DNA from: Phenylobacterium sp.
GTDB lineage: Bacteria > Pseudomonadota > Alphaproteobacteria > Caulobacterales > Caulobacteraceae
Direction: 5' to 3'
NCBI GenBank assembly: GCA_004799545.1
Contig: SSMU01000019.1
Location: 151 to 64,150, forward strand
DNA: 64,000 nt
Position numbers and translations under genes: made by a program. Of this stretch, positions 1 through 57,487 are shown piece by piece (within the stretch, counting starts at the first letter, position 1; each line of letters starts with the position of its first letter). The notes under the pieces are model-generated. The model ran no database searches. It had not been told where the DNA came from and saw only the letters and a program-made list of their open reading frames with translations.

Positions 1-546
1 GTCCAGAACGCCGCCGGCGCCTACGTGCCCTACACCGGACCCGGTGGCGTCCAGCGCGGTCAGAGCATTGTCGGCAGCCAGCTGCCGAACGCGCCGAAGA
101 ACAAGATCGCGATCAACACCAACTACACCTACGAGATGGAGAACGGCTCGCTCATCGGCTCGGTCAGCTACATCTGGCGTGACAAGCAGTACGGCTCGCT
201 GTTCAACCGCGACTACTACATCGCGCCGTCCTACGACCAGTGGGACGCCCGCGTGACCTACAAGGCGCAGAACAACCACTACACGATCATCGCCTTCATC
301 AAGAATATCGGGAACACCCTCGGCTACGAAGGCGGCTCCACCGCCAGCCGTCGCGCGGGCTTCCTGCCGGGCTATGTCACCGGCGCCAACACCGGGGCGG
401 GCGCGCTCACGCCCATCCCGGTCACGGCCCAGGGCACCTCGGTGGCCAACATCGCCCCGGTGCATATCCAGGAAAGCGGCATCGCGGTGGGCTACCTGCT
501 CACCCCGCCCCGCACCTACGGCATCGAACTGCAGTACCGCTTCTAA
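1..546 (+). CDS. TonB-dependent receptor, C-terminal fragment (5' end outside window)
   Basis: The frame is open from base 1 and matches track ORF 25..546. The protein ends ...TPPRTYGIELQYRF; a terminal Phe is typical of the last strand of TonB-dependent outer-membrane barrels. Confidence 0.8.
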   Translation, partial: VQNAAGAYVPYTGPGGVQRGQSIVGSQLPNAPKNKIAINTNYTYEMENGSLIGSVSYIWRDKQYGSLFNRDYYIAPSYDQWDARVTYKAQNNHYTIIAFIKNIGNTLGYEGGSTASRRAGFLPGYVTGANTGAGALTPIPVTAQGTSVANIAPVHIQESGIAVGYLLTPPRTYGIELQYRF

Positions 547-5691: not shown

Positions 5692-6594
5692 GTGCCGCGC
5701 CTGTTCAGCGCCTATGTGATCGTCGACTGGAGCGCCGCGGCCAAGCCCACCGCGGGCGCGGACTCCGTGTGGATCGGCGTGCTCAAGCGCGATGTGCGCT
5801 TCCGCATGGCCTTCGAGAGCTACAACCCGCCGACCCGCGCCGAAGCGGAGACGCGGCTGACGGCGATCTTCGACGACCTCGCCAAGCGCTCCGAGCGCGC
5901 CCTGCTGGGCTTCGACTTCCCGCTGGGCTTCCCGCGCGGCTTCGCCAGCGCCCTGAAGCTGACCGCCGAGCCGCCCTGGCGCGCCGCCTGGGACCAGCTC
6001 GACCGGATGGTCAAGGACAAGGCCGACAACACCAACAACCGGTTCGGCGTGGGCTCGGAGATCAACCGGCGGATGACCGGCGGCCCCTTCCCGTTCTGGG
6101 GCTGCCCGCCCAAGGACACGCTGACCACCCTGCAGCCCAAGCGCAGCCGCGTCCACGGCCCGGACGACCTGCCGGAGTTCCGCCACGCCGACCTGGCGGC
6201 CAAGGGGGCGGCCTCGATCTGGAAGCTCTACTACAACGGCTCGGTCGGCGGTCAGGCGCTGCTGGGCATCCCCTTCGTACGGCGGATGAAGCTGGCGCGC
6301 GGCGAGGCGATGCGGGTCTGGCCCTTCGAGACCGGCTTCAAGCCGCTCACCGAGGCGGACCTGGCCGGGGTGCGGATTGTGACGGCCGAGGTCTACCCCT
6401 CGCTGCTGAAGCCGGAGGGTGCGCCCGGCGAGGTGAAGGACCTGACCCAGGTGCGGACCACCGCCGAGCACTTCGCCCGCCTCGACGAGGCGAACAAGCT
6501 CGGCCTGCTGTTCGGGCCGCCCAAGGGAACCGCCACCGACGTCGTGCTCGACGCCGAACGCGAGGAAGGCTGGATCCTGGGCGCCGGCGCCTGA
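5692..6594 (+). CDS. hypothetical protein (possible DUF429/RNase H-like fold)
   Basis: 300-aa ORF with a GTG start and GC-rich third codon positions. The N-terminus YVIVDWSAAAKPTAGADSVWIGVL resembles the DUF429 type start. No function is recognisable from the sequence alone. Confidence 0.5.
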   Translation: MPRLFSAYVIVDWSAAAKPTAGADSVWIGVLKRDVRFRMAFESYNPPTRAEAETRLTAIFDDLAKRSERALLGFDFPLGFPRGFASALKLTAEPPWRAAWDQLDRMVKDKADNTNNRFGVGSEINRRMTGGPFPFWGCPPKDTLTTLQPKRSRVHGPDDLPEFRHADLAAKGAASIWKLYYNGSVGGQALLGIPFVRRMKLARGEAMRVWPFETGFKPLTEADLAGVRIVTAEVYPSLLKPEGAPGEVKDLTQVRTTAEHFARLDEANKLGLLFGPPKGTATDVVLDAEREEGWILGAGA

Positions 6595-8602: not shown

Positions 8603-9975
8603 ACCGCTCGGCGGCTGAGCATCCAGAAGCGGGCGAGCAGCAGGCCGCAGGAGACGAAGCTGGCGATCACCACCGCCCAGGCGATGCCGATCAGCTGCAG
8701 GCCCATGGGGATGGCCAGCCACCAGGCGAGCGGCATCATCACGAAGATGTAGCTCATCAGGTGGGTCGCGCTGGGCAGCCAGACGTCGCCGCGGGCGCGC
8801 AGGGCCTGGGCGGCGACCACCTGCAGGGCGTCCGGCAGGAACATGGCCGTGGCCAGCACCAGGGCCGGGATGGCCATGGCGAGGGTCTGGGCGTTCTCGG
8901 TGTAGGCCGACGAGATCAACGCCGCGTTCGGCAGGACCAACCCCGTCACCGCCACGCCGAACACCACCGTCACCCCGAAGGCCACCAGGCCGGCCCGGTT
9001 CACCCCCGGCTCGTCGCGGGCGCCATAGGCCCGGCCGACCAGCACCGCGGCGCCGGTGGCCAGGCCCAGGGGCACCATGAAGACGATCGCCGCGACGTTC
9101 AGAACGATGGTCCAGCCGGCCACCGCCAGGCCGCCGATCCAGCCGGCGATCACGTTCAGGCTGGCGAAGGAGGCCACCTCGAAGAAGTTCGAGGCGCCGG
9201 CGCCGAAGCCGATCCGCCGCTGCTCAGCCTCCGCCGCGCGGTCGCGCTCGGGCTTGTCGAAGACGCCCAGCGCGCGCGCCTCGGGCATCAGGGCGATGTA
9301 GCCGAGGGTGGCGGCGGCCAGGAAGGTCCGCGCGCCGGTCGTGGCCCAGGCGCCGCCCATGGCGCCCAGCGGCGGGAGCCCGAAGGTCCCCGGCACCAGG
9401 ACCAGGTCGAAGGCCAGGTTCACGCCGTTGGCGATCCACATGGCCCAGGCCGCCGGACCGGGGCGGCCCAGCCCCTCCAGCCAAGAGGCCGCCGCCACGC
9501 TCAGGGTGTAGCCGGGCAGCGACAGGCAGAAGATCAGCAGCACCCGAGAGGCGCCATCCGCCAGGTCCTGCGACAGGCCGATAACGTGCAGGAACGGCGG
9601 GCCGACCAGGGCGAGCAGGCCGCCCGCGCCGAAGCCGATCCACAGGCCGTAGGAGAGTCCCCGACGGAGCACCGCCCCGGTCAGGTCGCGCCGCCCCTCG
9701 CCGATCCGGCGGGCGGTCATCACCTGCACGCCGGTGAGCAGGCCGATGGCCATGGTGACGATCACGCTGCTCGGGGCCCAGCCGAGGGCGTGGTAGCCGA
9801 GCTGGGTCGCCGAATAGCGTCCCACCACCACCGCGTCCGACAGGCCCATGGTCATGATGCCGAGGCGAGCGAGCACCACCGGCCCCGACAGCCTCAAGAG
9901 GAAGGCGAGGTCTTTGCGGACGGGATGGTCGCGCCCTCTCGCGCGAGAGGGCGTCTGGGCCGCGTCGCGGTCCAT
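8599..9975 (-). CDS. MATE family efflux transporter
   Basis: Polytopic membrane protein with a MATE-like N-terminus (LAFLLRLSGPVVLARLGIMTMGLSDAVVVGR). The start is chosen at ATG 9975 (MDRDAAQ..); track ORF start 10056 is an alternative. Confidence 0.8.
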   Translation of the reverse strand: MDRDAAQTPSRARGRDHPVRKDLAFLLRLSGPVVLARLGIMTMGLSDAVVVGRYSATQLGYHALGWAPSSVIVTMAIGLLTGVQVMTARRIGEGRRDLTGAVLRRGLSYGLWIGFGAGGLLALVGPPFLHVIGLSQDLADGASRVLLIFCLSLPGYTLSVAAASWLEGLGRPGPAAWAMWIANGVNLAFDLVLVPGTFGLPPLGAMGGAWATTGARTFLAAATLGYIALMPEARALGVFDKPERDRAAEAEQRRIGFGAGASNFFEVASFASLNVIAGWIGGLAVAGWTIVLNVAAIVFMVPLGLATGAAVLVGRAYGARDEPGVNRAGLVAFGVTVVFGVAVTGLVLPNAALISSAYTENAQTLAMAIPALVLATAMFLPDALQVVAAQALRARGDVWLPSATHLMSYIFVMMPLAWWLAIPMGLQLIGIAWAVVIASFVSCGLLLARFWMLSRRAV

Positions 9976-10630: not shown

Positions 10631-12009
10631 ACTGCGGTGGCCCGACGCGCGGCGCCGCTCCGCTCGTCCTTCAGCTTCTCGGCCACCAGGAAGGCGAGGT
10701 CGAGCGCCTGTTCGCCGTTCAGCCGCGGGTCGCAGTGAGTGTGGTAGCGGTCGGCGAGGTCGCCCTCGGCCACGGCGCGCGCGCCGCCCAGGCATTCGGT
10801 GACGTTCTGGCCGGTCATCTCCAAATGCACGCCGCCGGGATGGACGCCCTCGGCCTTGCAGACCTCCACGAAGCTCTTCACCTCGGAGAGGATGCGGTCG
10901 AACGGCCGGGTCTTGTAGCCGTTGGCGGCGGTGAGCGTGTTGCCGTGCATCGGGTCGATCGCCCAGACGACATTGCGACCGGAGGCCTGGGTGGCCTTCA
11001 GCAGGCGCGGCAGCCGGTCCTCGATCTTGTCGTAGCCGAAGCGGCCGTAGAGGGTCAGGCGACCCGCCTCGTTCTTCGGGTTGAGCACGTCGATCAGCCG
11101 CGACAGCTCGTCGGCCTCCAGGGTCGGGCCGCATTTCAGCCCGATCGGGTTCTTGATGCCCTTGAAGTATTCCACGTGGGCGCCGGCGAGGTCGCGGGTC
11201 CGCTCGCCGATCCACAGCAGGTGGGCGGAGGTGTCGTACCAGTCGCCCGAGGTGCTATCGACCCGGGTCATGGCCTCCTCGAAGTTCAGCAGCAAGCCCT
11301 CGTGGCTGGTGAAGAACTCGACCTGGTGCAGGGCCGGCTGGCTCTCCGGCGTGACGCCGATCGCCTCCATGAACATCAGGGTCTCGCTGATCTTCTCGGC
11401 GACTTCCCGATAGCGCGCGCCCTGCGGGCTGTCGGCGACGAAGCCCAGGGTCCAGCGATGGATGTTGTGCAGGTCGGCGTAGCCGCCGCCGGCGAAGGCG
11501 CGCAGCAGGTTGAGCGTCGCGGCCGACTGGCCATAGGCCTGGATCAGCCGCTGCGGATCGGGGGTCCGCGCCTCGGGCGTGAACTCCATGCCGTTGATGT
11601 TGTCGCCGCGGTAGGACGGCAGGGCGACGTTGGCCTGCACCTCCACCTCAGAGGAGCGCGGCTTGCCGAACTGGCCGGCCATGCGGCCCACCTTCACCAC
11701 CGGCTTGCCGCCGGCGAAGGTCAGCACCACCGCCATCTGCAGGATCAGCCGGAAGGTGTCGCGGATGTTGTCGGCGTGGAATTCCTTGAAGCTCTCGGCG
11801 CAGTCGCCGCCCTGCAGCAGGAAGGCCTTGCCTGCGGCCACATCGCCCAGCAGCGCCTTCAGCCGGCGCGCCTCGCCGGCGAACACCAGGGGCGGCATGC
11901 GGCGCAGCGTCTGCTCCACCTGCGACAGGGCCGCAGGGTCCGGATAGTCGCTCGGCATGTGCTTGGCCGGCTTGGCCCTCCAGGACGCCGGCGTCCAATG
12001 CTCGGTCAT
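10627..12009 (-). CDS. class II 3-deoxy-7-phosphoheptulonate (DAHP) synthase
   Basis: [28 protein letters not shown]...[12 protein letters not shown]...KPRSS... is the class II (plant-like) DAHP synthase signature. The product is about 460 aa. Confidence 0.9.
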
Positions 12010-15080: not shown

Positions 15081-15105
15081 GGAACCTTCAACATGACAGG
15101 GCGTT
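15081..15105 (+). promoter_or_regulatory. EcfG/SigT-type (general stress response) promoter motif GGAAC-N16-CGTT
   Basis: GGAAC (15081-15085), a 16-nt spacer, then CGTT (15102-15105). It lies 50 nt upstream of ATG 15155, at the edge of an AT-rich island. Confidence 0.6.
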
Positions 15106-15154
15106 GGGCTGGCCAGAGGAAGGGATATGCATCCTTTCCCGGAGCCTCATTCAA

Positions 15155-15964
15155 ATGCGCAAACACCTGCTCGTCGTCGGCATCGCCGCGGCGGCCCTCA
15201 TCCCATCGTTCGCGATGGCCCAACAACAGACCTGCGAGCAGCAGCACCAGAACCGCGTGGCCGGCACGGTCGTCGGCGCGGGCCTCGGCGCCCTGCTGGG
15301 CGGCGCCATCGCCGGATCGCATGACCGCACCGCGGGCGTTGTGGTCGGCGGCGTTGGCGGCGCCATCGCCGGCAACCAGCTTTCCAAGTCCAATGCCGAC
15401 TGCGCCCACGCCTACGGTTACTACGACCATGACGGCGCCTGGCACGCCACCACCGTCGAGCACGGCATGGCGGCCGGCTACTACAATCGCGACGGCGGCT
15501 GGGTCCAAGGCTCGCCGAACGGCTACTACGACGCCAACGGCCACTGGATGACCGCCAACACCGCGGCGTCGGCGTCCAACGGCTACTACGACAACGACCA
15601 CCGCTGGGTGCCGTTCGCGGCCGCCGGCTACTACGACTCCCAGGGCCACTGGTACGAGACCGCGGCCGCCGCCGACCGCTACCGCACCAACACCGCCTTC
15701 GTGGCGCGCAACGAGCCGGTCTATGTCGAACCGGCGCATGACGTCCGCGCGCGCGAAGATCGGATCGGCCAGCGCATCCAGGCGGGCGTCGACAACGGCA
15801 GCCTGTCGCGCCGGGACGCCCGCCGCGCCCGGGACACCCTGCAGGAGATCCGCCAGCAGGAGTCCCGCATGCAGCGCTACCAGGGTGAGCTGAGCCAGGG
15901 CGACAACGCCCGTATCCAGGGCCGGCTCGACAACCTGAGCCACAGCCTGCGCTTCGACAGCTAG
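15155..15964 (+). CDS. secreted glycine-zipper protein with five GYY(D/N)xxGxW repeats
   Basis: Signal peptide MRKHLLVVGIAAAALIPSFAMA. Gly-zipper GTVVGAGLGALLGGAIAG...GVVVGGVGGAIAG. Five repeats (GYYDHDGAW, GYYNRDGGW, GYYDANGHW, GYYDNDHRW, GYYDSQGHW). The C-terminus is charged and helical. Confidence 0.7.
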   Translation: MRKHLLVVGIAAAALIPSFAMAQQQTCEQQHQNRVAGTVVGAGLGALLGGAIAGSHDRTAGVVVGGVGGAIAGNQLSKSNADCAHAYGYYDHDGAWHATTVEHGMAAGYYNRDGGWVQGSPNGYYDANGHWMTANTAASASNGYYDNDHRWVPFAAAGYYDSQGHWYETAAAADRYRTNTAFVARNEPVYVEPAHDVRAREDRIGQRIQAGVDNGSLSRRDARRARDTLQEIRQQESRMQRYQGELSQGDNARIQGRLDNLSHSLRFDS

Positions 15965-16154: not shown

Positions 16155-16598
16155 GTGCGGGCCATGATTGCCGCAGTGCTTCTGGCGGGCTCCATCCTGG
16201 GCTCGCATCCCCTGTCGATGGACGATCCGCAGCGCCGGACCCTGCTGGTGCGCAGCGAGGGCGTGGTGCTGGTGCGCTTCGACGCCGACGGCTTCGTCCA
16301 GGCCCGCGGCTGCGACGGCCGCCTGCGCCCGGTGGGCAGCATCTCCGAGCGTCCGGTGGCCATCCGCATCACCCACGACGGCGCGCTCACAGGCCTAGTC
16401 TACGATCCCGACCTCGAGCCCACCCAGCGCTACGCCTTCGAGCGGATGATGCTGGCGGTCGGCCTCTCGGACTGGCGCGCCCTGGCCAGCACCTGCCTGC
16501 CGGCCTCCTCGCTGACCGCCACGGCGGCGTCGGCGTCGCAGTCGGGCGTCCCGGCGGCGGCCATCGTCCCCTCGCCCCTGGCCCAGACCGGCAACTGA
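16155..16598 (+). CDS. hypothetical secreted protein
   Basis: 147-aa ORF with a hydrophobic N-terminus (MRAMIAAVLLAGSILG) and GC-rich third positions. No family is recognised. The start is either GTG 16155 or ATG 16164. Confidence 0.45.
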   Translation: MRAMIAAVLLAGSILGSHPLSMDDPQRRTLLVRSEGVVLVRFDADGFVQARGCDGRLRPVGSISERPVAIRITHDGALTGLVYDPDLEPTQRYAFERMMLAVGLSDWRALASTCLPASSLTATAASASQSGVPAAAIVPSPLAQTGN

Positions 16599-17314: not shown

Positions 17315-18349
17315 TCAGTTCGCGGCCGGCGGCGGCGGTGGAGGTGGAGGTGGAGGCAGGGCCGCCGGCCTTACATTGGCGGCCGCCATGCTCGCGGCGT
17401 CGGCGAACAGGCGCCCCTGGTCGGCGGTGAAATAGAGCCGCGCGTGGGCGCGGTCGAGGATCACCCGGTGGGCCAGGAAGAAGTCGAGGCCGACTAGGCC
17501 ATCGTAGCCGGACGCGCTCATGTCGGTCACCAGCATCGGCACGTCCGTGGCCTCCTGGCCGGCGATGGCGACGCGGCCGACGGACGCCTCGACCACCGCC
17601 AGCAGGCTGCCGTCGACCACACGCCGCAGCGAGGTCTGCGGACGGACCTTGTCGGGGCTGAGGTCGATCCCGGCCGTCAGGGCTGCGGCGCGGTTGAGGT
17701 GGCTGCGCTGGGCGCCGGTGTCGAACATCAAGTGCATCGCCACGCCGTTGATCATCACCGTGCCGCGCGGCTGGGGCCAAGTGGGGGTGAATGGATCCAG
17801 CGCCAGGGCCGCGACCGGCCCACCGTCCGCCCAGTAGGCGAGTTCGTTCCCTTCGCAGCCCTCGGCCTTCAGGACCCGCACCTTGCCGTGCGCCAGGTCG
17901 AACTCCACGTCGGCGCCGGCGAACATGTTCTGGCCGATGCGACCGGCCGCGCCGACCTCGGCGATCCCACCGCCGATCAGGAAGTCGACGTTGCGCAGAG
18001 TGACGCCGCCCAGGGTCAGCTCGGGCACGGTCGTGACCTGCCAGCCGGTCCCGTTCGGCCCGCCGATGCGCAGGGCGGATGGGACGGGGTGGCCCTTGAG
18101 CCCCAACCCCTGCGCGCTCGCCGCGGTCAGGCCGTTGAAGAAGGCGCCCGTGTCGAGGATCAGGGTGGCGTCCGCGCCGCCGACCTTCGCCGGCACGAGG
18201 ATCTTCTGGGCGACGAGCGAGACCGGCAACTCGATCAGGGGCGTCACATGGCAGGCCGCCTTGGCTTCGGCCACGCCGAATCCCGTGGCGACACCAATCG
18301 CAGCCGCCGCCAGCCGCCCCGCGGCGCGGCGCATCCTGGTGTTCACCAT
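17315..18349 (-). CDS. periplasmic two-domain retropepsin-like (clan AA) aspartic protease with C-terminal poly-proline
   Basis: The N-terminus is signal-peptide-like (MVNTRMRRAAGRLAAAAIGVATGFGVAEAKA). There are two DTG active-site motifs (ATLILDTGAFF and HLMFDTGAQRS). The C-terminus is ...AALPPPPPPPPPPAAN, with 10 Pro codons at 17327-17356. GAGGAGG lies 8 nt before the ATG. Confidence 0.75.
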   Translation of the reverse strand: MVNTRMRRAAGRLAAAAIGVATGFGVAEAKAACHVTPLIELPVSLVAQKILVPAKVGGADATLILDTGAFFNGLTAASAQGLGLKGHPVPSALRIGGPNGTGWQVTTVPELTLGGVTLRNVDFLIGGGIAEVGAAGRIGQNMFAGADVEFDLAHGKVRVLKAEGCEGNELAYWADGGPVAALALDPFTPTWPQPRGTVMINGVAMHLMFDTGAQRSHLNRAAALTAGIDLSPDKVRPQTSLRRVVDGSLLAVVEASVGRVAIAGQEATDVPMLVTDMSASGYDGLVGLDFFLAHRVILDRAHARLYFTADQGRLFADAASMAAANVRPAALPPPPPPPPPPAAN

Positions 18350-18419: not shown

Positions 18420-19574
18420 CTAGCGGTCGCTGCCGTTCAGGTTCAGCCGGATCGCCACGTGCACCACCCCGCCCTCCACGGGCTCGGCGTCGGACGACCA
18501 GAGGTTCATCCGCATGGTCGCGGCGAGCTTCACGGCCGCCTCGGAGAAGCCCAGGCCGTCGGGATCGGCGCTTTCCGGCGCGCAGTCGGCCAGTGTGCCG
18601 TCCGGGGTCACCAGGCACTTGGCCATGCCCCGTCCGCTGGTCACCCCCTTGGCCGCAGCCTCGGGCGGGAACAGCCTCGGCGCCGTCTCCGGATCGACGC
18701 CGGAGATCCAGGACGGCGCCGTCACCGTCCGGTCCGCCGCTTCGCCGGCGGCCGGGAAGCGGATCGGCACGTCCACCTCGATGGGCGCACCATGCGGGGC
18801 GTATTTCATCACCTCTGGCGAAATGCGGAACTTGGCGGCGAGCTTCACCGCGGCCGGGGCGAAGCCGGCCCCGCCCGGCAGCTCCTTGGACGCCACACAG
18901 CGGACCAGCTCGCCGCTCCGCGCCACCTCGCAATGGGCCACCGCATAGCCCTCCGCCACACCAGCCCGGACGGGGCGCGCCTGCGCCAGGTCGTCGAAGG
19001 ACGGCGCCTGCACCCAGACCGGATGGTTCATCATCACCACGCGGCGCATCTCGGTCGGGTTCTTGCTCAGTTGCAGGTTCCGCACGTCCATCTGGCCGCT
19101 TGTCCCGGCGGCGAGCGCAAGGTCCTGGATGTTCTGCTGGGTGTCCGGCGCCTTGAAGTTGAGCGCGATGTTCATGTTGGCGGCGACGGGCTGGCCATCG
19201 GCGCCCTTCAGAGGCGTCACCTTCAGGGTCGGCTGCAGCTCCAGCGCCGCCGCGCCGAACCCGCGGCCCTGCGGCGTCTCGTAGGCGACGCGGCAGCGCT
19301 CGGCGAGGCCATGGATGTCGACGAAGCAGGTCAACGTCACATGGCCGTTGATCTTGCTCGCCCAAGCGCCGGCCGGCCATACCGAGACGTGCTGCGCGCC
19401 AGGGGCGTCGTCGTCGCTGTCGATGGCCACCGTCGCGTCAGCCGGCGGCGCCACCTTGGGCTGGGCGGTGACGATCAGCGGCGAGAGCGTCTTCGGCGGC
19501 AGCACGGACGGATCGGTCGGCGCGGTCGGCGGGGCCGCGACGGTCGCGGCGGCGGCCAGGAACTCGAGCAGCAT
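18420..19574 (-). CDS. secreted protein with three TonB_C-like modules (paralog A)
   Basis: ATG 19574 follows GAGGTG. Leader MLLEFLAAAATVAAPP, then a Pro-rich linker and three modules, each with a Cys pair (LTCFVDIHGLAERC, AHCEVARSGELVRC, AKCLVTPDGTLADC) and GFG/GFA..AA motifs like the TonB C-terminal domain. Confidence 0.7.
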   Translation of the reverse strand: MLLEFLAAAATVAAPPTAPTDPSVLPPKTLSPLIVTAQPKVAPPADATVAIDSDDDAPGAQHVSVWPAGAWASKINGHVTLTCFVDIHGLAERCRVAYETPQGRGFGAAALELQPTLKVTPLKGADGQPVAANMNIALNFKAPDTQQNIQDLALAAGTSGQMDVRNLQLSKNPTEMRRVVMMNHPVWVQAPSFDDLAQARPVRAGVAEGYAVAHCEVARSGELVRCVASKELPGGAGFAPAAVKLAAKFRISPEVMKYAPHGAPIEVDVPIRFPAAGEAADRTVTAPSWISGVDPETAPRLFPPEAAAKGVTSGRGMAKCLVTPDGTLADCAPESADPDGLGFSEAAVKLAATMRMNLWSSDAEPVEGGVVHVAIRLNLNGSDR

Positions 19575-19585
19575 GGTCACCTCGC

Positions 19586-20731
19586 CTAGTTGGTCGCCGG
19601 ATCGAGATTGAGCCGGATGGCCACGTGCACCACCCCGCCTTCCACCGGCTCGGCGTCGGACGACCACAGGTTCATCCGCATGGTCGAGGCGAGCTTCACG
19701 GCCGCCTCAGAGAACCCCAGGCCGCCGGGATCGGCGCTCTCGGGCGCGCAGTCCGCCAGCGTGCCGTCCGGGGTCACCAGGCACTTCGCCGTGCCCCGGC
19801 CGCTGGTCACCCCCTTGGCGGCCGCCTCCGGCGGGAACAGCTTCGGCGCGGCCTCGGGATCGACACCCGCCACCCAGGCGGGCGCGGTCACCGTGCGGTC
19901 CACCGCGCCGGGCGGCGGCAGGCGGATCGGGATATCCACCTCGATGGGCGCGCCGTGCGGCGCATATTTCATGACCTCGGGCGATATCCGGAATTGGGCG
20001 GCCAGCGTCAGCGCCGCCGTCGCGAAGCCGCGGCCGGTCGGCTCCTCCTTCGAGACGACGCAGCGGGTCAGGTCACCCGTCCGGAGCACCTCGCAGTGAG
20101 CGACGGCGTAGCCCTCCGCCCCGCCGCCGCGCGCCGGATAGGCCTTGGTCAGCTCGTCGAAGTCCGGCGCCTTCACCCAGACCGGATGGTTCATCATCAC
20201 CACGGCCCGCAGGCTGATGGGGTTTTGCCGGACGTCGAGGTCCTGCCACGCCGCGTCGCGGCCCGCCCTGGGATTGGTGGCCTGGATCAGTTGCTGGACG
20301 TTGTCCTGCGGCTTCGGCGCCTTGAAGGTCAGCGCGATGTTCATATTGGCGGCGAGCGGCTGGCCGTCGGCGCCCTTCAGCGGGGTGACCTTCAGGGTCG
20401 GCTGCAGCTCCAGGGCCGCGGCGCCGAAGCCCCGGCCCTGCGGCGTCTCGTAGGCCACCCGGCAGCGCTCGGCCAAGCCGTGGGCATCGACGAAGCAGGT
20501 GAGCGTCACATGGCCGTCGATCTTGGCCGCCCAGGCGCCGGCCGGCCAGACTGAGACGTGCTGCGCGCCGGGCGCGTCGTCGTCGCTGTCGATGGCCACC
20601 GTCGCGTCGGCCGGCGGCGCCGCCTTCGGCTGGGCGGTGACGATCAGCGGCGAGACCGTCTTCGGCGGCAGCTGGGATGGATCGGTCGGCGCTGTGGCGG
20701 TCGCGGCGACGGTGAGGATTTCGAGCAGCAT
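19586..20731 (-). CDS. secreted protein with three TonB_C-like modules (paralog B)
   Basis: 381 aa. It is nearly identical to paralog A in module 1 and module 3 and is separated from A by 11 nt. Confidence 0.7.
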   Translation of the reverse strand: MLLEILTVAATATAPTDPSQLPPKTVSPLIVTAQPKAAPPADATVAIDSDDDAPGAQHVSVWPAGAWAAKIDGHVTLTCFVDAHGLAERCRVAYETPQGRGFGAAALELQPTLKVTPLKGADGQPLAANMNIALTFKAPKPQDNVQQLIQATNPRAGRDAAWQDLDVRQNPISLRAVVMMNHPVWVKAPDFDELTKAYPARGGGAEGYAVAHCEVLRTGDLTRCVVSKEEPTGRGFATAALTLAAQFRISPEVMKYAPHGAPIEVDIPIRLPPPGAVDRTVTAPAWVAGVDPEAAPKLFPPEAAAKGVTSGRGTAKCLVTPDGTLADCAPESADPGGLGFSEAAVKLASTMRMNLWSSDAEPVEGGVVHVAIRLNLDPATN

Positions 20732-20743
20732 CAGCGGCCCTTG

Positions 20744-21880
20744 CTACCGGGTGGTTGGATCGAGGTTGAGCCGGATGGCCACGTGCACCACCCCGCCCTC
20801 CACCGGTTCGGCGTCGGACGACCAGAGGTTCATGCGCATGGTCGAGGCGAGCTTCACGGCGGCCTCGGAGAACCCCAGGCCATCGGGATCGGCGCTCTCC
20901 GGCGCGCAGGCGGTCATCGAGCCATCGGGGGCCACCACGCACTTGGCGATGCCTCGGCCGCTGGTCACGCCCTTGGCGGCGGCCTCCGGCGGGAACAGCT
21001 TCGGCGCGGCCTCGGGATCGACACCCGCCAGCCAGGAGGGCGCGGTCACCGTGCGGTCGGCGATGGCGGCCCTGGCCGGGAAGCGGATCGGGATGTCGAT
21101 CTCGATCGGATCGCCGTGCGGGGCGTACTGCATCACCGCCGGCGAGACCTTGAAGTCATAGACCAGGTCCATCGCCGCCTTGGCGAAGCCGCGGCCGGCG
21201 GGCAGCTCCTTGGCGACGAAGCACTTCTTCATCACCCCGATGCGCTCCACCTGGCAGTGGACCACCGCATAGCCCTCCTGGCCGTCGCCGCGCGACGGAT
21301 AGGCCCGCGCCAGGTCGTCGAAGCTGGGGGCCTTCACCCACACCGGGTGGCTCATCATGACCACGTGGCGCAGGTCCATGGGATTGCCCTTGACCGAGAC
21401 GCCGGCGCCCACGTCGCCCGCGTGGTTGATGTCGATCTGGGTGTCCGGGGCGCGGAACACCATGGCCAGGTTCATCTCCGCGCCGATCGGCTGGCCGTCG
21501 GAGCCCTTGGCCGGGGTGAGTTTCAGGGTCGGCTGCAGCGCCAGGGCCGCGGCGCCGAACCCCAGCCCCTGCGGCGACTCCCAGGCCACCCGGCAGCGCT
21601 CGGCGAGACCATGGACGTCGACGAAGCAGGTCAGGGTCACCTTGCCGTCGGCGTCGCGCTCGACGGCGGCGGCCGGCCAGACGGTGACCCGCTGGCCGCC
21701 GTCCGGGACGGTGTCGTCGTTGTTGACGCTGAGGGTGATGTCGGCGGGCGGCGGCTTGTTGGCCTGCGGCATCACCACCAGGGGCGAGACCGTCTTTGGC
21801 GGCAGCAGCGAGACCTCGGCCGGAGCCGCTTGCGGCGCTGCGGCGGCGACGACCGCGGCGGCCAGGATCGGCAACAGCAT
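20744..21880 (-). CDS. secreted protein with three TonB_C-like modules (paralog C)
   Basis: 378 aa. The leader is MLLPILAAAVVAAAAP and the architecture is the same. It is more diverged, except for the last module (..GFSEAAVKLASTMRMNLWSSDAEPVEGGVVHVAIRLNL). It is separated from B by 12 nt, and GGGAGGGGGG precedes the ATG. Confidence 0.7.
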   Translation of the reverse strand: MLLPILAAAVVAAAAPQAAPAEVSLLPPKTVSPLVVMPQANKPPPADITLSVNNDDTVPDGGQRVTVWPAAAVERDADGKVTLTCFVDVHGLAERCRVAWESPQGLGFGAAALALQPTLKLTPAKGSDGQPIGAEMNLAMVFRAPDTQIDINHAGDVGAGVSVKGNPMDLRHVVMMSHPVWVKAPSFDDLARAYPSRGDGQEGYAVVHCQVERIGVMKKCFVAKELPAGRGFAKAAMDLVYDFKVSPAVMQYAPHGDPIEIDIPIRFPARAAIADRTVTAPSWLAGVDPEAAPKLFPPEAAAKGVTSGRGIAKCVVAPDGSMTACAPESADPDGLGFSEAAVKLASTMRMNLWSSDAEPVEGGVVHVAIRLNLDPTTR

Positions 21881-21948
21881 GGGCGGATCCCCCCTCCCTC
21901 AAGATGTTGAAGGCGAACTTGGCACGCGCGCTGCCCTTGCGGAAGGCT

Positions 21949-22821
21949 TCAAACCGTCGCGACCAGCTTGCGGTAGAGGTGCCAGGTGGCGTGGCCCAGC
22001 ACCGGCATGACGAAGATCAGCCCGACCAGCGCCGGGAGCGAGCCCAAGAGCAGGCCGCCGGCCACGATCAGGCCCCACAGGCCCAGGGTCCGCGGGTTCT
22101 CGCGAACCGCCTTCAGCGAGGTGGCGATGGCGGTCCCCATGCCCACGTCGCGGTCGAGCAGCAGCGGGAAGGAGACCACGCTGATCGCCAACGCCGCCAC
22201 TGCGAAGACGAAGCCCACCGCCGTCCCCACCCCGATCATCGCCCAGCCGGCCGGGGTCTCGAAGACCGCCCGCAGGAAGGCTCCGATCGAGGTCGGCGGC
22301 GCGGGCCCCAGGGTCGCGGCGTAGATGCCGTAGGCGGCCGCCAGCCAGGCGAAGAACATCAAGAGCAGGATGGATCCCACGCCCAGGATCGAGCCGATGG
22401 CCGGCGAGTGCAGCACGCTGAACGCCGAGCCCCAGGTCACCTCTTCGCCCGCCTCGCGCCTGCGGCTCACCTCGTAGAGGCCAATCGCCGCCAGCGGGCC
22501 GATCAGGGCGAAGCCCGAGGCCAGGGGGAAGATCATCGGCAGCAGGTCGTAGCTGAACGCCAGCCGGGCCAGCACCAGCCCCGCCACCGGATAGATCACC
22601 GCCAGGAACACCACGTCGTCGCGGGTGGCCCCCAGGTCGGCCACGCCCTTGCGCAGGGCGTCCATGAGGTCGGCGGTGGTGATCTTACGCACCGCGGGCA
22701 CAACCTCGCCCACATGCAGCCTCGGCTTGGCGGTGACCGCCCGGCCGAGGTCCGACCACAGCCAGGCCACCCGCTCGACGACGTATTCCAGGGGATTCTC
22801 GACGTGGTTTTCGGTGGCCAT
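21949..22821 (-). CDS. DUF2189 domain-containing integral membrane protein
   Basis: 290 aa with multiple TM segments. The N-terminus (..VRKITTADLMDALRKGVADLGATRDDVVFLAVIYPVAGLVL..) is typical of DUF2189 proteins. Confidence 0.65.
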   Translation of the reverse strand: MATENHVENPLEYVVERVAWLWSDLGRAVTAKPRLHVGEVVPAVRKITTADLMDALRKGVADLGATRDDVVFLAVIYPVAGLVLARLAFSYDLLPMIFPLASGFALIGPLAAIGLYEVSRRREAGEEVTWGSAFSVLHSPAIGSILGVGSILLLMFFAWLAAAYGIYAATLGPAPPTSIGAFLRAVFETPAGWAMIGVGTAVGFVFAVAALAISVVSFPLLLDRDVGMGTAIATSLKAVRENPRTLGLWGLIVAGGLLLGSLPALVGLIFVMPVLGHATWHLYRKLVATV

Positions 22822-48386: not shown

Positions 48387-49205
48387 ATGACAAACGCCCG
48401 CGACATCGCGCCGATCCCGGTCAGCCGCACCCGAGCGGTGTCGCGCGTCGGCCGGGACGGCGCAAGGCCGGACACCCGCGCGCTCGCCGAGGAGACGCCG
48501 GTCGCGCTGATCCACGACGCGACCACCACCGCGGTGATGATGGCGACGCCGGCCGACATCGAGGACTTCGCCGTAGGGTTCAGCCTGACGGAGGGGATCA
48601 TCGCGGACCCTGCGGAAATCCGGGAGCTGGAGGTGGCGGCAGGCGACCTCGGCGTCGAGGCCCGGATGTGGCTGGCCAAGCCGCGGGGCGAGGCGCTGGC
48701 GGCGCGGCGACGGCTGCTCGCCGGGCCTACGGGCTGCGGGCTCTGCGGCGTCGAGAGCCTGGCTGAAGCCCTGCGGCCGACGCCGCTGGTGGGCAAGGGC
48801 TTCCGGGTCACCGCCGAAGAGATCTGGGCCGCGCTCGACGCCCTTCCGGCGGCCCAGACGCTGGGCGCGGTCACCCGGGCCGTCCACGCCGCCGGCTGGT
48901 GGACGCCGGGGGTCGGCTTTGCGGCCGTGCGCGAGGACGTCGGCCGCCACAACGCCCTGGACAAGCTGGTGGGGGCGCTGGCCCGCGCGGCCCAGCCCTG
49001 CGCCCCCGGCCTGCTGGTCCTGACCAGCCGCGTCTCCGTCGAGATGGTGCAGAAGGCCGCGGTGCTGGGGGCTCAGGTGCTGGTCGCGGTCTCGGCGCCG
49101 ACGACGCTGGCGATCGCCACGGCGGAGCGCGCCGGCATGACCCTGATCGGCGTGGCGCGGCCGGACAGCTTCGAGGTGTTCACGCGCGGCGACCGCGTCG
49201 TCTAG
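48387..49205 (+). CDS. fdhD: formate dehydrogenase accessory sulfurtransferase
   Basis: ..ETPVALIHDATTTAVMMATPADIEDFAVGFSLTEG...GCGLCG...GRHNALDKL.. are FdhD motifs. ATG 48387 lies inside track ORF 47403..49205. Confidence 0.85.
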   Translation: MTNARDIAPIPVSRTRAVSRVGRDGARPDTRALAEETPVALIHDATTTAVMMATPADIEDFAVGFSLTEGIIADPAEIRELEVAAGDLGVEARMWLAKPRGEALAARRRLLAGPTGCGLCGVESLAEALRPTPLVGKGFRVTAEEIWAALDALPAAQTLGAVTRAVHAAGWWTPGVGFAAVREDVGRHNALDKLVGALARAAQPCAPGLLVLTSRVSVEMVQKAAVLGAQVLVAVSAPTTLAIATAERAGMTLIGVARPDSFEVFTRGDRVV

Positions 49206-50536
49206 CTACCGTACTGCAGGCTGACGTGGGTGGCGCCCAACATCGCCAGCTCGCCGGCCCGGCGCTCGGAGCGGACGCAATAGACCATCACCGACTTGGC
49301 GACCCGCTTGGCCTTGCGGATGGTGCGTTCGGCCCAGTCGCTGAACTCGTCGTCGGCGAGGCTGGGCGGGCATTCGATGGAGAGCGCACGCAGGCCCGTG
49401 CCCTTGAGCCGGCGCACCAGCGGCGGAGCGGCGGTGGTCAGGCGGCCTTCCACCAGCAGGATGAAGGGCTTGATCATGGAAACCGCCGCCAGCAGTGAGC
49501 CGGTGGGCACGCCTTCGATATCGCAGATCTCGCAGATCACGCCGCACTTCACGAGCTTGCCGGCCTCGCGCAGCGGCTGGACCAGGTGGGCGCGGCCGCG
49601 GCTCGACGACAGGCTGGCGTAGGACAGCGGGATGATCAGGCTGAGGTGCTCCTCCTCGGCGGCCTCGGCCTGCAGCCGGTCGATGCCACGGGCGACCGTC
49701 GCGAGGTCGACCTTGAGCAGGTCGGCGGCGGAGAGGTTCGCCATCTGGGCCGCGTTCAGGACCTCGTTGTTGCGGATGACGATCACCCGCCGGATCATCC
49801 GGAAGCCGATGCGGGTGAAGCCCTTCAGTTCGTAGACCGGCTCCAGGTTGGTCGAGACCCGCAGGTTGCGGCCGTCGGAGGAGATGAAGGGGGACCACTG
49901 GTCGACGATCTTGCGCGCCGGGGGCGTGGCGGCCGGCAGCAGCGGCATGGAGAGGCTGGCCAGGGCCTCGCCGTCGGCCGGCGGCGCCTCCTCGGGCTCT
50001 TCTCCGTCGGCCTGTTCGGCGGCGCCGACGTCGATCAGCTTGGCCTCGACCGAGCCCTTGGCGATCCGGGTCACCTGCAGCACGCCCTCGCCGGCCATGT
50101 GGGCGTCGCCGAGGAAGTGGTTGAAGATCTCCCGCAGGTAGCGGAGGCAGGCGGCCTGGCCGGCGAGGCGGCCGTAGTCCGGCTGGACGATCAGGAAGTC
50201 GGTCGTCGAGACCCGCAGGAACAGGCCCCGCGGCCCGACTCCGCGCTCAAGCACACGCTCGCTGAAGCCGTAGACCTGGTCCTGACGCAGCGCCCAGCGG
50301 GCGCCCAGTCGGGTCTGTACGGCCTCGACGGAGATCAGGTTGACCTTGCCGGCGGCCAGCAGGGTGCGGTCATTGAAGCGTTCGAGGGAGGCTTCGAGGC
50401 CGGCGGAGACCAGGCGTGGGACCGCCGCCGCAACCGCCTCCGCGGCCGCACCCTCCTCGGGACGGGCAGCTGCCGCGCCGCTCGGCCGCACGCAAAACCC
50501 CTTACACCACCTCCCGCATACGGCGGGACTTTGCAT
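49202..50536 (-). CDS. hypothetical protein resembling a degenerate GGDEF-EAL pair
   Basis: The N-terminal half has ..LFLRVSTTDFLIVQPD.. where RxGGDEF would sit. The C-terminal half follows EAL-domain spacing with altered catalytic residues (..PVYELKGFTRIGFRM.., ..LSLIIPLS.., ..VICEICDIEG.., ..LSIECPP.., ..VYCVRSE..GATHVSLQYG). The start is uncertain (ATG 50536 or GTG 50491). Confidence 0.5.
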   Translation of the reverse strand: MQSPAVCGRWCKGFCVRPSGAAAARPEEGAAAEAVAAAVPRLVSAGLEASLERFNDRTLLAAGKVNLISVEAVQTRLGARWALRQDQVYGFSERVLERGVGPRGLFLRVSTTDFLIVQPDYGRLAGQAACLRYLREIFNHFLGDAHMAGEGVLQVTRIAKGSVEAKLIDVGAAEQADGEEPEEAPPADGEALASLSMPLLPAATPPARKIVDQWSPFISSDGRNLRVSTNLEPVYELKGFTRIGFRMIRRVIVIRNNEVLNAAQMANLSAADLLKVDLATVARGIDRLQAEAAEEEHLSLIIPLSYASLSSSRGRAHLVQPLREAGKLVKCGVICEICDIEGVPTGSLLAAVSMIKPFILLVEGRLTTAAPPLVRRLKGTGLRALSIECPPSLADDEFSDWAERTIRKAKRVAKSVMVYCVRSERRAGELAMLGATHVSLQYGS

Positions 50537-53456: not shown

Positions 53457-53675
53457 TCAGTCCGCCCGTCCGTCGGGCGCCCGGTCCGCGGCGCGCCCGG
53501 CGCCGTCGGAAATCCAGTAGCAGGCCTCAGCGATGGCCATGCCGACGGCGCGGCGCAGCGGCCCGACAGCGGGCGTTTCGCGCTCCAGCGTCATCAGCTC
53601 CTCCTCATAGGCGGTGAGCAGCTCGACGAGGTTGCGGGCGACTTCCCGCGTCCTGTCGGGATCGGTCGGCCTCAT
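53457..53675 (-). CDS. hypothetical 72-aa protein upstream of the XRE regulator
   Basis: ATG 53675 ([33 protein letters not shown]..). GC-rich third positions. The stop codon lies 2 nt before the regulator's start. Confidence 0.45.
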
Positions 53676-53741
53676 GGTCGCTCCCCGGAAGGGGCGCAAC
53701 CTTGAGCATTGCGACGCCGAATGCAAGCCGGGGCGGCGCCA

Positions 53742-56186
53742 TCAGTCGGCGGCCACGGCCCGTCCGGCGGCCTGGGCGGCGATCACCGCCCGGCCCTCGC
53801 GCTCGGCGATCCGCCGGAAGGTGGCCAGCGCCTGACCGACGACCTGGTCCATGTTGTAGTAGCGATAGGTCGCCAGACGTCCGACGAACTGCACCCCTTG
53901 GGTCTCCAGGGCGAGGGCCTCGTAGCGCTTGTAGAGGGCCTGGTTCTCGGGCCGCGGCACCGGATAGTAGGGGTCGCCTTCAGCCTGCGGGTACTCGTAG
54001 GTGACGGTGGTCTTGCGGGCCGACTGCCCGGTCATGTGCTTGTATTCGCTGATCCGGGTGTAGGGCACGGCTTCGTCGGGATAGTTCACCGTGCCGACCG
54101 GCTGGAACCACTCCTGGTCCAGGGTCTCGTGGCGGAAGGCCAGGCTGCGGTAGGGCAGCTTGCCGTACCGGAAGTCGAAATACTCGTCGATCGGGCCGGT
54201 GAAGATCAGCCGGTCGTAGTCCGCCTCGTCGCGCACATCCTCGAAATCGACGCCGACCTCGACGGTCACCCCGGCCTGGTCGAGCATGTTCTCGAACATC
54301 CGCGTGTAGCCCTCGGCGGGCATGTTCTGGAACTTGTCGGTGAAGTAGCGGTCGTCGGTGTTGGTGCGGGTCGGAACCCGCGCGGTGACCGACTTGTCCA
54401 GCTCGGAGGGATCCATGCCCCACTGCTTGCGCGTGTAGCCCTGGAAGAAGGTCTCGTAGAGCTCGCGGCCCACCGCGGAGACCACCACGTCTTCCGACGT
54501 GCGGATCTTCTCCACCGGCTCGGCGCGCGACTTCAGATAGGCCTCCGCCGCCTCGTCGGACTGCAGATCGAGGCCGTAGAGGGTGTTCAGGGTCGTGCGG
54601 TTGATCGGGATCGGCACGTGCAGGCCGCCCCGCAGGCAGCCCAGCACCCTGTGCTCATACGGCCGCCACCTGGTGAATTGCGAGAGGTAGGCCGCGACCT
54701 CGTCGGAGTTGGTGTGGAAGATGTGCGGGCCATAGCGGTGCATCAAGACGCCCGCGGCGTCCTTCTCGTCATAGGCGTTGCCGCCGATGTGCATCCGCCG
54801 GTCGACCAGCATGACGCGCTTGCCGAGCTGGCTGGTCAGCCGTTCGGCCAGCACCGAGCCCGCGAAGCCGGCGCCGACGATCAGATAGTCGAACGGCTTC
54901 TTGTGCGACGACGGCCGGATCACCGGCGAGGGCAGGATCGTCGCGCCTCTATCGACCGCCGCCGCGGGGTCGCGCTTGGCGATCGCGCGCGCGATCTCCA
55001 GGTTCATCCGCCCGAAGGTCTCGTCCCACGACAGGGCGGCGAGCGCATTGTCCACGGCCTTCAGCCAGTCACCCCTGACGCGCGAGAGCGCCAGGGCCTG
55101 GTCGCAGGCGGCGACGAACTCCTCGGCCGTCGCAGCGATCTTCACCGCTTCCAGGTCGCCGTAGTGGCGCGCCACGTCGACGATCGGCGTCGAGACCACC
55201 GGCCGGCCGCCGGCCAGGTATTCCGGCGTCTTGGTTGGACTGATGAAGCGCGTCGACTCGTTGATGGCGAACGGCATCAGGGCGACGTCCCAGCCGGCCA
55301 GGTAGCGCGGCAGTTCCTCGTAGTCCTTGCCGCCGAGGTAGTGGATGTTCGCCCGCTTCGGCAGGTCGTCGGGATTGATCTTCACCACCGGCCCGAGGAT
55401 CACCAGGCTCCAGTCGGGCCGTGCGTCGGCGAGCGCCGCCAGCAGGGCGAGGTCCATCCGCTCGTCCACCACGCCGTAGAAGCCGAGCCGCGGCCACGGC
55501 AGGCCAGCCTGGTCGTCCGGTTCGCCGCGCAGCACGCGGGCCTTGGCGAAGTGGCCGCGGTCAACGCTCGACGGGAACGGGTGGATGTTCGGGTGGCGGT
55601 CGCGCTTTGCTTCCCAGAGACTGTAGCCGCCGGTGAACACCACGTCGGCGATCGACATCAGCTCGCGCTCGAGCAGGGTCAGCTCCGGCGGGGCGAACTT
55701 GAAGTTCGCCAGCTCGTCCATGCAGTCATAGACCGTGCAGACCGCCTCGATGTGCCGCGAGAACGGCAGCATCATGGGCGTGTAGTACCAGCGGATGATG
55801 TCGCCCTCGACGGTGGCGAGCACGGTGTCCAGCAGGCCGCGGATCATGGCCTCGTGATCCTCGCCGGGCGAGCCGTCCGGCAGGACGGGCGTCAGCACCA
55901 CCACGCCGCTCTCGGCGCAGACGTTGCTGTCCAGCCGCGGCGTGCGCTCCGGCGGGCCGAACACCGGCTCCTCCCAGACGATCACCCGCCGCTCCTTGGC
56001 GAAGCGGGTCATCAGGTGTTGCGGACGCTGGAAGACGAAATTCCACCGGAGGTGGGAAAAACAGATCAGGGTCTGCCGACCCCGAGGACGCGGCCCGGAT
56101 TGGACGGAAAACGACGCAGCGCCAGTGGCGCTTGGGAACTGCTCAGAGTCCAAGGACGCATTCCTCTTTCGATAAAGCCGACACAC
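53742..56186 (-). CDS. fusion protein: N-terminal glycosyltransferase-like domain + C-terminal UDP-galactopyranose mutase
   Basis: The C-terminal 370 aa are UGM-like (DYLIVGAGFAGSVLAERL...GPHIFHTN...FFQGYTRKQWG...YPVP). The N-terminal 430 aa begin ..LICFSHLRWNFVFQRPQHLMTRF.. (GT1-like). The start is uncertain: GTG 56186, or TTG 56153 after AAGAGGA. Confidence 0.8.
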   Translation of the reverse strand: MCRLYRKRNASLDSEQFPSATGAASFSVQSGPRPRGRQTLICFSHLRWNFVFQRPQHLMTRFAKERRVIVWEEPVFGPPERTPRLDSNVCAESGVVVLTPVLPDGSPGEDHEAMIRGLLDTVLATVEGDIIRWYYTPMMLPFSRHIEAVCTVYDCMDELANFKFAPPELTLLERELMSIADVVFTGGYSLWEAKRDRHPNIHPFPSSVDRGHFAKARVLRGEPDDQAGLPWPRLGFYGVVDERMDLALLAALADARPDWSLVILGPVVKINPDDLPKRANIHYLGGKDYEELPRYLAGWDVALMPFAINESTRFISPTKTPEYLAGGRPVVSTPIVDVARHYGDLEAVKIAATAEEFVAACDQALALSRVRGDWLKAVDNALAALSWDETFGRMNLEIARAIAKRDPAAAVDRGATILPSPVIRPSSHKKPFDYLIVGAGFAGSVLAERLTSQLGKRVMLVDRRMHIGGNAYDEKDAAGVLMHRYGPHIFHTNSDEVAAYLSQFTRWRPYEHRVLGCLRGGLHVPIPINRTTLNTLYGLDLQSDEAAEAYLKSRAEPVEKIRTSEDVVVSAVGRELYETFFQGYTRKQWGMDPSELDKSVTARVPTRTNTDDRYFTDKFQNMPAEGYTRMFENMLDQAGVTVEVGVDFEDVRDEADYDRLIFTGPIDEYFDFRYGKLPYRSLAFRHETLDQEWFQPVGTVNYPDEAVPYTRISEYKHMTGQSARKTTVTYEYPQAEGDPYYPVPRPENQALYKRYEALALETQGVQFVGRLATYRYYNMDQVVGQALATFRRIAEREGRAVIAAQAAGRAVAAD

Positions 56187-57372: not shown

Positions 57373-57487
57373 GAGTGCGCAATCCTCCGCCCGAGGCAGA
57401 GTTCCATGGCCGAACATTGGTTTATTGGAACAATTCGGAAAGGGGCGGGCTTTGACTCCCGGGATATGACGGGAAAGCCAGGGCTTG

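Follow-up and report, generated by a model that had tools for sequence, protein, structure and literature searches.

The segment analysed here, referred to as the window, is a 64 kb stretch (64,000 nucleotides, nt) of Phenylobacterium sp. contig SSMU01000019.1 (assembly GCA_004799545.1). It carries three tandem genes, A, B and C, each encoding a protein with three modules of the TonB C-terminal type (TonB_C) but no TonB anchor. All three lie on the minus strand, namely gene A at 20744..21880 (378 amino acids, aa), gene B at 19586..20731 (381 aa) and gene C at 18420..19574 (384 aa), with spacings of 12 nt between A and B and 11 nt between B and C. The G+C content at third codon positions (GC3) was 0.88-0.94, which is typical of real genes in this window of 71% GC. 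Good Shine-Dalgarno sequences precede genes A and C, and the start codon of A or B cannot be moved further upstream, so that no longer N-terminus is possible. A preliminary description of this DNA had given the same three reading frames, lengths, strand and gaps, and the leaders, Pro-rich segment, Cys motifs and C-terminal string that it quoted were all found in A, B and C.

In protein A a leader (aa 1-18) and a Pro-rich linker (aa 19-57) are followed by module 1 (aa 58-145; 21446-21709), a variable linker (aa 146-172), module 2 (aa 173-270; 21071-21364) and module 3 (aa 271-374; 20759-21070). The corresponding modules 1, 2 and 3 are encoded at 20315-20575, 19910-20203 and 19601-19909 in gene B and at 19146-19406, 18747-19040 and 18435-18746 in gene C, all on the minus strand. 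Both curated models of the TonB C-terminus recognised all three proteins above their thresholds. With the Pfam model PF03544 (cut-off 24.6 bits), A scored 54.3, B 47.3 and C 40.2 bits, and three stretches were matched in A and in B and two in C; with the NCBIfam model TIGR01352 (tonB_Cterm) the scores were 47.4, 50.6 and 35.7 bits against 27.1. In profile-profile comparison modules 1 to 3 were mutually homologous (E 1.7e-15, 1.7e-14 and 2e-7), and they have in common an aromatic-Pro motif, a Cx10C pair, a G-F-(G/A/S)..AA helix and a final strand. Module 1 additionally matched positions 11-103 of the MxcH receptor model NF038079, an N-terminal TonB_C-like extension (E 1e-9 to 1e-11), at a score of 35-43 bits that lies far under the equivalog cut-off of 925.

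The fold was examined with AlphaFold2 models of A and B, which were built from alignments of 72 and 109 sequences and read via the predicted local distance difference test (pLDDT) and DSSP. Model A reached a pLDDT of 84.8 and a predicted template modelling score (pTM) of 0.79, and model B reached 86.7 and 0.81. Three helix-hairpin-helix-strand modules are present in each. The best Foldseek matches in the PDB were TonB2, E. coli TonB, TonB in its complexes with BtuB and FhuA, FusB, P. aeruginosa TonB and HasB, followed by domain III of TolA (TMt 0.53-0.67, probability about 1), and TonB2 was the sole match when a sequence profile was compared with PDB sequences (5e-5). The nine TonB_C-type modules proposed earlier are thus borne out by Pfam, NCBIfam, the predicted structures and their fold matches. 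With E. coli TonB the modules share the profile, the fold, the aromatic-Pro motif ahead of the hairpin (WP, YP, FPP), the G-F-G/A/S..AA helix and the final strand, and a short Pro-rich segment precedes the modules in these proteins, too. The Cx10C pair, one in each module, is presumably absent from E. coli TonB. Its positions are C85/C96, C209/C220 and C314/C325 in A and C79/C90, C213/C224 and C317/C328 in B. All six Cys were invariant in the alignments of 72 and 109 sequences, which points to disulfides and hence to an oxidising compartment. Each module is therefore predicted to be stapled by the pair on its beta-hairpin, and the three disulfides would be formed in the periplasm.

Probable export and the absence of TonB partners from the window

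The N-terminus of A, B and C consists of a short uncharged hydrophobic stretch (an ML..L..AAA leader) which is followed by a (K/N)TVSP(L/V)xV segment. Among 66 full-length relatives the first Lys or Arg occurred at a median position of 24.5, and only 1 of the 66 had such a residue within the first 10. The hydrophobic run begins at residue 1; its longest uncharged stretch free of Pro had a median of 12 residues in these relatives (5-17) and at most about 15 in A, B and C. The leader contains no His, and neither an SxxxH motif nor a cytoplasmic N-terminal tail was found in the three proteins, in agreement with the earlier statement that a TonB-type anchor is missing. In the models of A and B the N-terminus was disordered. 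Distant relatives with 3-6 such modules bear textbook Sec signal peptides, for example MKKVVPLASAICLAALCAVAAQA-QAP. Because of the invariant Cys pairs, the homology to the ectodomain of M56 proteases described below and these signal peptides of relatives, we strongly infer that A, B and C are exported via the short uncharged leader.

The (K/N)TVSP(L/V)xV(T)A(Q) segment is near-invariant in the relatives, with V, S, P and V each conserved in at least 90%. In gene B it reads KTVSPLIVTAQPK and resembles a TonB box, and the segment is likewise similar to the TonB boxes of local receptors, EQVTVTGS (L003) and DPVTVIGT (L054). It occurs in free and in protease-fused forms alike and was modelled as ordered in B (pLDDT 92). 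It could be a cis-docked strand that is displaced by ligands.

A domain search of the approximately 49 open reading frames of the window revealed no ExbB or ExbD (MotA_ExbB or ExbD domain), no TonB anchor, no M56 peptidase and no BlaI in these 64 kb, although exbBD can be unlinked. This agrees with the preliminary description as far as exbB and exbD are concerned. The sole component of a TonB system seen in the window is the C-terminal piece of a TonB-dependent receptor barrel at its 5' edge (25-546, plus strand).

The T3C family and its relation to M56 sensor proteases

A, B and C are members of an unnamed family of anchorless triple-TonB_C proteins of Caulobacterales, which we termed T3C in this analysis. 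At E<=1e-5 we found 356 close relatives of about 370-390 aa that align end to end. An exhaustive search yielded 551 representatives at 50% identity with E<=1e-30 and 2733 with E<=1e-10. Exactly three Cx10C motifs were present in 167 of 307 retrieved proteins. The named relatives all belong to Phenylobacterium, Caulobacter, Caulobacterales, Rhizomicrobium or unclassified alphaproteobacterial metagenome-assembled genomes (MAGs), and they are listed as 'TonB family protein', 'energy transducer TonB' or 'hypothetical'. For hundreds of proteins, 'energy transducer TonB' is probably a misannotation. All relatives came from MAGs or metagenomes, and no characterised homolog in a cultured model organism was found among them. 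Our literature search on free multi-TonB_C proteins or TonB-box decoys retrieved nothing relevant, and neither there nor in the databases searched has a function been defined for the multi-TonB_C architecture, as had been supposed before. TonB homologs with extra domains have been described in the literature as functionally uncharacterised.

A sister clade (P0290) comprises three-module proteins with classical signal peptides. Its genes are located directly after ldcA (Peptidase_S66) in two contigs (L067, 7113-9044; L068, 138-2069). The L067 locus is also near mpl (Mur ligase) and polA, which hints at a link to peptidoglycan recycling.

The closest connection to a known system was found in M56 zinc proteases of the BlaR1 type. 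The whole mature A, B and C align with residues ~403-751 of the M56 proteins encoded on two Phenylobacterium contigs (L001 and L002) at 44-48% identity over ~350 aa. This alignment takes in all three Cys pairs and the N-terminal TVSP..V segment. On L001 an operon consists of blaI, the gene for the M56 protease with a T3C-like region (M56-T3C) and 4 free T3C genes, and on L002 the same order is followed by 2 free T3C genes. The M56 peptidases of these operons have 754-763 aa, and the intergenic gaps amount to 1-99 nt. At a further locus (L011, 9399-11071) a blaI-like gene overlaps a free T3C gene by 4 nt with no M56 gene between them, which would be a repressor-plus-binder operon without its sensor. 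The T3C-like region of the M56 proteins comes after their last hydrophobic segment. The repressor BlaI resides in the cytoplasm, which places the M56 peptidase domain there as well, and the T3C part that follows the last hydrophobic segment must then be periplasmic. By this topology argument the free T3C proteins would be soluble paralogs of the sensor ectodomain. In the literature, the combination of M56 with TonB_C ranks second in frequency among M56 architectures, and no signal is known for it. The TonB_C domain and its fold are known as well; what is new here are free, multi-copy paralogs of the sensor ectodomain.

At five blaI loci, ahead of each blaI-like gene in the M56-T3C operons, we identified the perfect palindrome TACGAA-N4-TTCGTA, which overlaps a TTGAC -35 box (L002 7284-7299; L011 9463-9478; L014 7197-7212; L018 6557-6572; L035 752-767) and is accompanied by an extra TTCGTATG half-site at the start codon. 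It is a candidate operator of the BlaI family for the M56-T3C sensor class. In the whole window the palindrome was absent even when 2 mismatches were allowed. Moreover, tblastn detected no blaI or M56 coding sequence in the 64 kb, and the M56 queries matched only the part equivalent to the ectodomain. A regulation of the array by BlaI in the window was therefore rejected. A, B and C themselves showed no match to the M56 zinc-peptidase model PF05569 and have no transmembrane helices. They differ in this from the BlaR1/MecR1-family M56 sensors with C-terminal TonB_C (including the TonB1/TonB10 type of B. thetaiotaomicron and the Phenylobacterium M56-T3C), with which they share the ectodomain.

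T3C proteins as proposed soluble peptide binders, and competing explanations

Domains of the TonB_C and TolA-III folds bind peptides and proteins by beta-strand augmentation. The reading that we tentatively prefer, as possible rather than probable, is that T3C proteins are soluble periplasmic binders of TonB-box-type strands, acting on the ligand of M56-T3C as buffers or as competitors. The proteins would be exported to the periplasm, fold there with three disulfides and not act as energy transducers. Their modules may bind extended peptide strands by beta-augmentation in the manner of the TonB C-terminal domain; the likeliest targets are strands of the TonB-box type, whether they belong to outer-membrane receptors or to incoming TonB-dependent proteins. 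Free T3C would thereby compete stoichiometrically with the M56-T3C sensors for their ligand, or buffer it. This arrangement would parallel that of BlaZ and PBP2a, which bind beta-lactams and are regulated by the beta-lactam-sensing BlaR1 and MecR1.

The periplasmic TonB C-terminal domain offers a precedent, as its overexpression leads to competitive inhibition of transport that depends on TonB (Howard 2001, cited in PMC9841981). Those engineered fragments (Howard et al. 2001) and T3C are both soluble, anchorless TonB_C proteins, but the former are artificial, single-domain and over-expressed, whereas T3C proteins are natural, three-domain, multi-copy and, as predicted, disulfide-stapled. For FusB, it is reported that its TonB_C domain can bind a folded protein substrate besides the TonB box (PMC7593965, PMC13253070). 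FusB, HasB and TolA domain III share the fold of the T3C modules; unlike T3C they are membrane-anchored, single-domain force transducers with ExbBD- or TolQR-type motors. TonB_C-like domains outside TonB also occur in receptors of the MxcH type (NF038079), in periplasm-facing positions, while T3C proteins have neither plug nor barrel.

Several observations weigh against soluble competitors. Many T3C genes are lone copies in housekeeping neighbourhoods, which suit a constitutive envelope role no less than an inducible decoy. Neither blaI nor an M56 gene nor a BlaI operator is present in the window, and the leader is without the positively charged n-region that marks classical signal peptides. 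The proposed binding of TonB boxes is deduced from the predicted fold, and the pTM of ~0.8 points to a compact body of three modules, in which edge strands may be taken up by inter-module packing and be unavailable to ligands. A PADLOC defence search gave no match for T3C or M56-T3C, and T3C as a known defence system was accordingly rejected.

A more specific form of the preferred reading, which we consider rather unlikely, is that T3C proteins are natural TonB-box traps and M56-T3C proteins are TonB-box sensors. Strands of the TonB-box type exposed in the periplasm would push the proteins' own TonB-box-like N-terminal strand, KTVSPLIVTAQ, out of a module. Cleavage of BlaI would be the outcome in the fused form, and sequestration of the exposed strand in the free form. 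The source of such strands might be receptors loaded with ligand, or invading bacteriocins or phage proteins that depend on TonB. Alternatively, free T3C may pair with an M56-T3C ectodomain encoded elsewhere, by module swapping or as hetero-oligomers, and tune or gate BlaI-type signalling; in this case the free proteins would bind no external ligand of their own. The end-to-end ectodomain homology, the free copies in one operon with blaI and M56 and the TVSP(L/V)xV segment, which is shared by free and fused forms and ordered in the model of B, would all suit this pairing, but most loci, including the window, are without a nearby M56 gene, and many MAGs possess T3C with no detected M56-T3C (MAGs being incomplete), which leaves this explanation doubtful. 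A similarly improbable alternative assigns the modules to peptidoglycan or muropeptides, where T3C proteins would be periplasmic scaffolds or spacers with a copy number tuned to envelope needs. The TonB C-terminal domain has been reported to associate with peptidoglycan. The position of the sister clade directly after ldcA and near mpl points in the same direction, as do the envelope-related neighbours GlmU, GT25, Wzy_C and the DUF2189 membrane protein in the window. However, the ldcA linkage is confined to one clade, the contexts of T3C loci are otherwise heterogeneous, and no LysM, OmpA or SPOR-type motif is present.

Clearly less probable than these is a function as substrate adaptors or holdases for the aspartic protease encoded downstream of the array, to which T3C proteins would hand over unfolded beta-strand clients such as misassembled outer-membrane proteins. 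The protease gene lies 70 nt downstream of gene C on its strand, no terminator-like site intervenes, and the layout is the same in the syntenic locus L062; yet none of the other T3C loci inspected (56 genome loci, L001-L005 and L064) has the gene, nor has the syntenic P0014 contig, and it looks like a local insertion. Least likely of the rivals, and very improbable, are true but unusual TonB transducers, as the database name 'energy transducer TonB' suggests, with an N-terminal anchor and with ExbB/ExbD partners from another part of the genome. Linkage of tonB to exbBD is often missing, and the order of hydrophobic N-terminus, Pro-rich stretch and TonB_C is superficially like that of TonB. Against this stand the shortness of the hydrophobic run, which starts at residue 1 (median 12, 5-17), and the missing cytoplasmic tail and SxxxH transmembrane anchor. 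E. coli TonB has one C-terminal domain, whereas T3C proteins have three, with predicted disulfides; relatives carry cleavable signal peptides, the same domain set is fused behind M56 proteases, and there is no exbBD in the 64 kb.

Free T3C, at ~380 aa and with a confidently predicted structure, offers a soluble and tractable starting point in the search for the ligand of M56-TonB_C sensors. The T3C locus indicates that the sensor ectodomain also exists as free, multi-copy, apparently exported proteins, which in some genomes are preceded by a candidate BlaI-type operator. If free T3C proteins indeed bind TonB boxes, they would be a natural counterpart of the dominant-negative periplasmic TonB fragment and would have a bearing on the regulation of TonB-dependent uptake and on resistance to TonB-dependent toxins and phages. 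If the M56-T3C proteins were TonB-box sensors, this would represent a new logic of envelope signalling and defence and would explain the second-largest class of BlaR-like sensors.

Sequence exchange, copy number and neighbouring genes

Overall aa identity was 68% between A and B, 66% between A and C and 80% between B and C. The preliminary description had named A and B as almost identical through module 1. In fact this pair is B and C, the second and third genes, with 93% aa and 89% nt identity through module 1, whereas A and B share only 69% aa. Gene C resembles B at its 5' end and in the final part of module 3; its linker, its module 2 and the beginning of module 3 have diverged. Each copy is closer to a relative elsewhere than to its own paralogs, A to P0002 (84%) and L062_1, B to P0008 (=L062_2; 83%) and C to P0003 and P0007 (about 75%). 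On these comparisons the duplications are therefore old.

The last module had been described as nearly identical in all copies down to the nucleotide level. Its similarity was evident, with 87-95% aa and 88-92% nt identity between copies, but the longest identical run was 49 nt. The proportion of synonymous differences (pS) was about 0.27 in module 3 and about 0.46 in module 2, and it fell to 0.14 between A and B at aa 271-310. Module 3 is the most conserved part of the protein family-wide (72-90% aa identity between genomes), and purifying selection across the family accounts for most of its similarity among A, B and C. Gene conversion as its sole cause was rejected, as module 3 is equally conserved between genomes, and was kept as an added layer. 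Gene A groups with its ortholog L062_1 up to ~aa 275 (57 versus 168 informative sites) and from there on with its paralog B (34 versus 22). This switch was significant in a max-chi2 permutation test (p=0.0005), and the reciprocal test on B agreed. Within module 3 of A (20759..21070) the run of 49 nt that is identical to B ends near aa 310. A gene conversion tract between A and B in module 3 is thus supported by the sequence comparison. Besides, B and C share a 5' tract (breakpoint test, p=0.005). The mosaic conservation noted before was confirmed, with a recombination signal in these breakpoints, and concerted evolution at the ends of the repeat unit holds in this moderated form, next to a module 3 whose similarity reflects mostly family-wide selection. 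In the variable linker (aa 146-172) the proportion of nonsynonymous differences (pN) was about equal to pS and the models were of low pLDDT or disordered. Positive selection in this linker was rejected, and we read it as unconstrained, not adaptive.

The array is located in a neighbourhood with the conserved order M28 peptidase, GlmU, RpiA, GT25, (DUF2189), T3C, (aspartic protease), (DUF6445), glutathione-reductase-like gene, Wzy_C and DAHP synthase. At this position one three-module copy was found in L064, one copy plus a 115-aa single-module gene in the P0014 contig, two copies plus the aspartic protease in L062 and three copies plus the protease in the window. Since syntenic relatives carry one or two copies, the array has grown stepwise from one to two to three copies by duplication at a conserved chromosomal locus. 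Among 56 genome loci single T3C copies prevailed, and about a dozen arrays of 2-3 were present. The 115-aa TonB_C gene lies right after T3C on the P0014 contig (JGI 3300056388; 11202-11549 of the listed locus) and could be a remnant of the family or a minimal version. The triplication of the window is a genuine one. An assembly artefact was rejected as the copies differ at 19-27% of nucleotides, and other independent assemblies carry T3C arrays of 2, 3 and 4 copies, one of them on a 636 kb contig. The name suffix of this contig, np1212, suggests a nanopore assembly.

The aspartic protease gene 70 nt after gene C (17315..18349, minus strand) encodes a secreted two-domain protease of clan AA. 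The protein has a classical signal peptide, carries a DTGA motif at residue 66 and another at residue 210, and has 11 consecutive prolines at the C-terminus. It showed a weak match to the PADLOC candidate-defence model PDC-M08B (2e-7). Because it is linked to the T3C array only in the window and L062, it is not considered part of a conserved system. Upstream of A lies a gene for an integral membrane protein with DUF2189 (21949..22821, minus strand), which also neighbours T3C at the syntenic positions of L062 and the P0014 contig but is missing from L064 and L006. The spacer of 68 nt between this gene and A (21881..21948, minus strand) contains the Shine-Dalgarno sequence GGGAGGGGGG. A semi-conserved element, CCAAGG-N13-GTGCCAAG(C/T)TCGC, was found upstream of the first T3C gene at the syntenic loci (window 21881-21948; L062 6914-6990; L064 9930-10000; L006 ~9850-9916). 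It matched neither the sigma-70 scan nor the BlaI operator, and a promoter scan near the array found nothing. The spacer is a probable promoter or regulatory site of the array's own. The terminator-like sites found do not separate the genes of the array. A structured RNA or riboswitch near the array was rejected, as Rfam finds only two tRNAs in the window.

Elsewhere in the window, a 286-aa protein with a signal-like N-terminus (15104-15964, plus strand) combines a glycine-zipper 2TM domain with repeated GYYD/GYYN motifs and a charged C-terminal helix. Four open reading frames with gene-like GC3 matched no Pfam family at E<=0.01, located at 49202-50536 (minus strand, 444 aa), 5692-6594 (plus strand, 300 aa), 16155-16598 (plus strand, 147 aa) and 53457-53726 (minus strand, 89 aa). 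A sugar-nucleotide cluster includes two unusual fusion reading frames, one for a group-1 glycosyltransferase fused to UDP-galactopyranose mutase (53742-56186, minus strand, 814 aa) and one for a glycosyl-hydrolase-1-like region fused to an RmlD-type reductase (57485-59752, plus strand, 755 aa).

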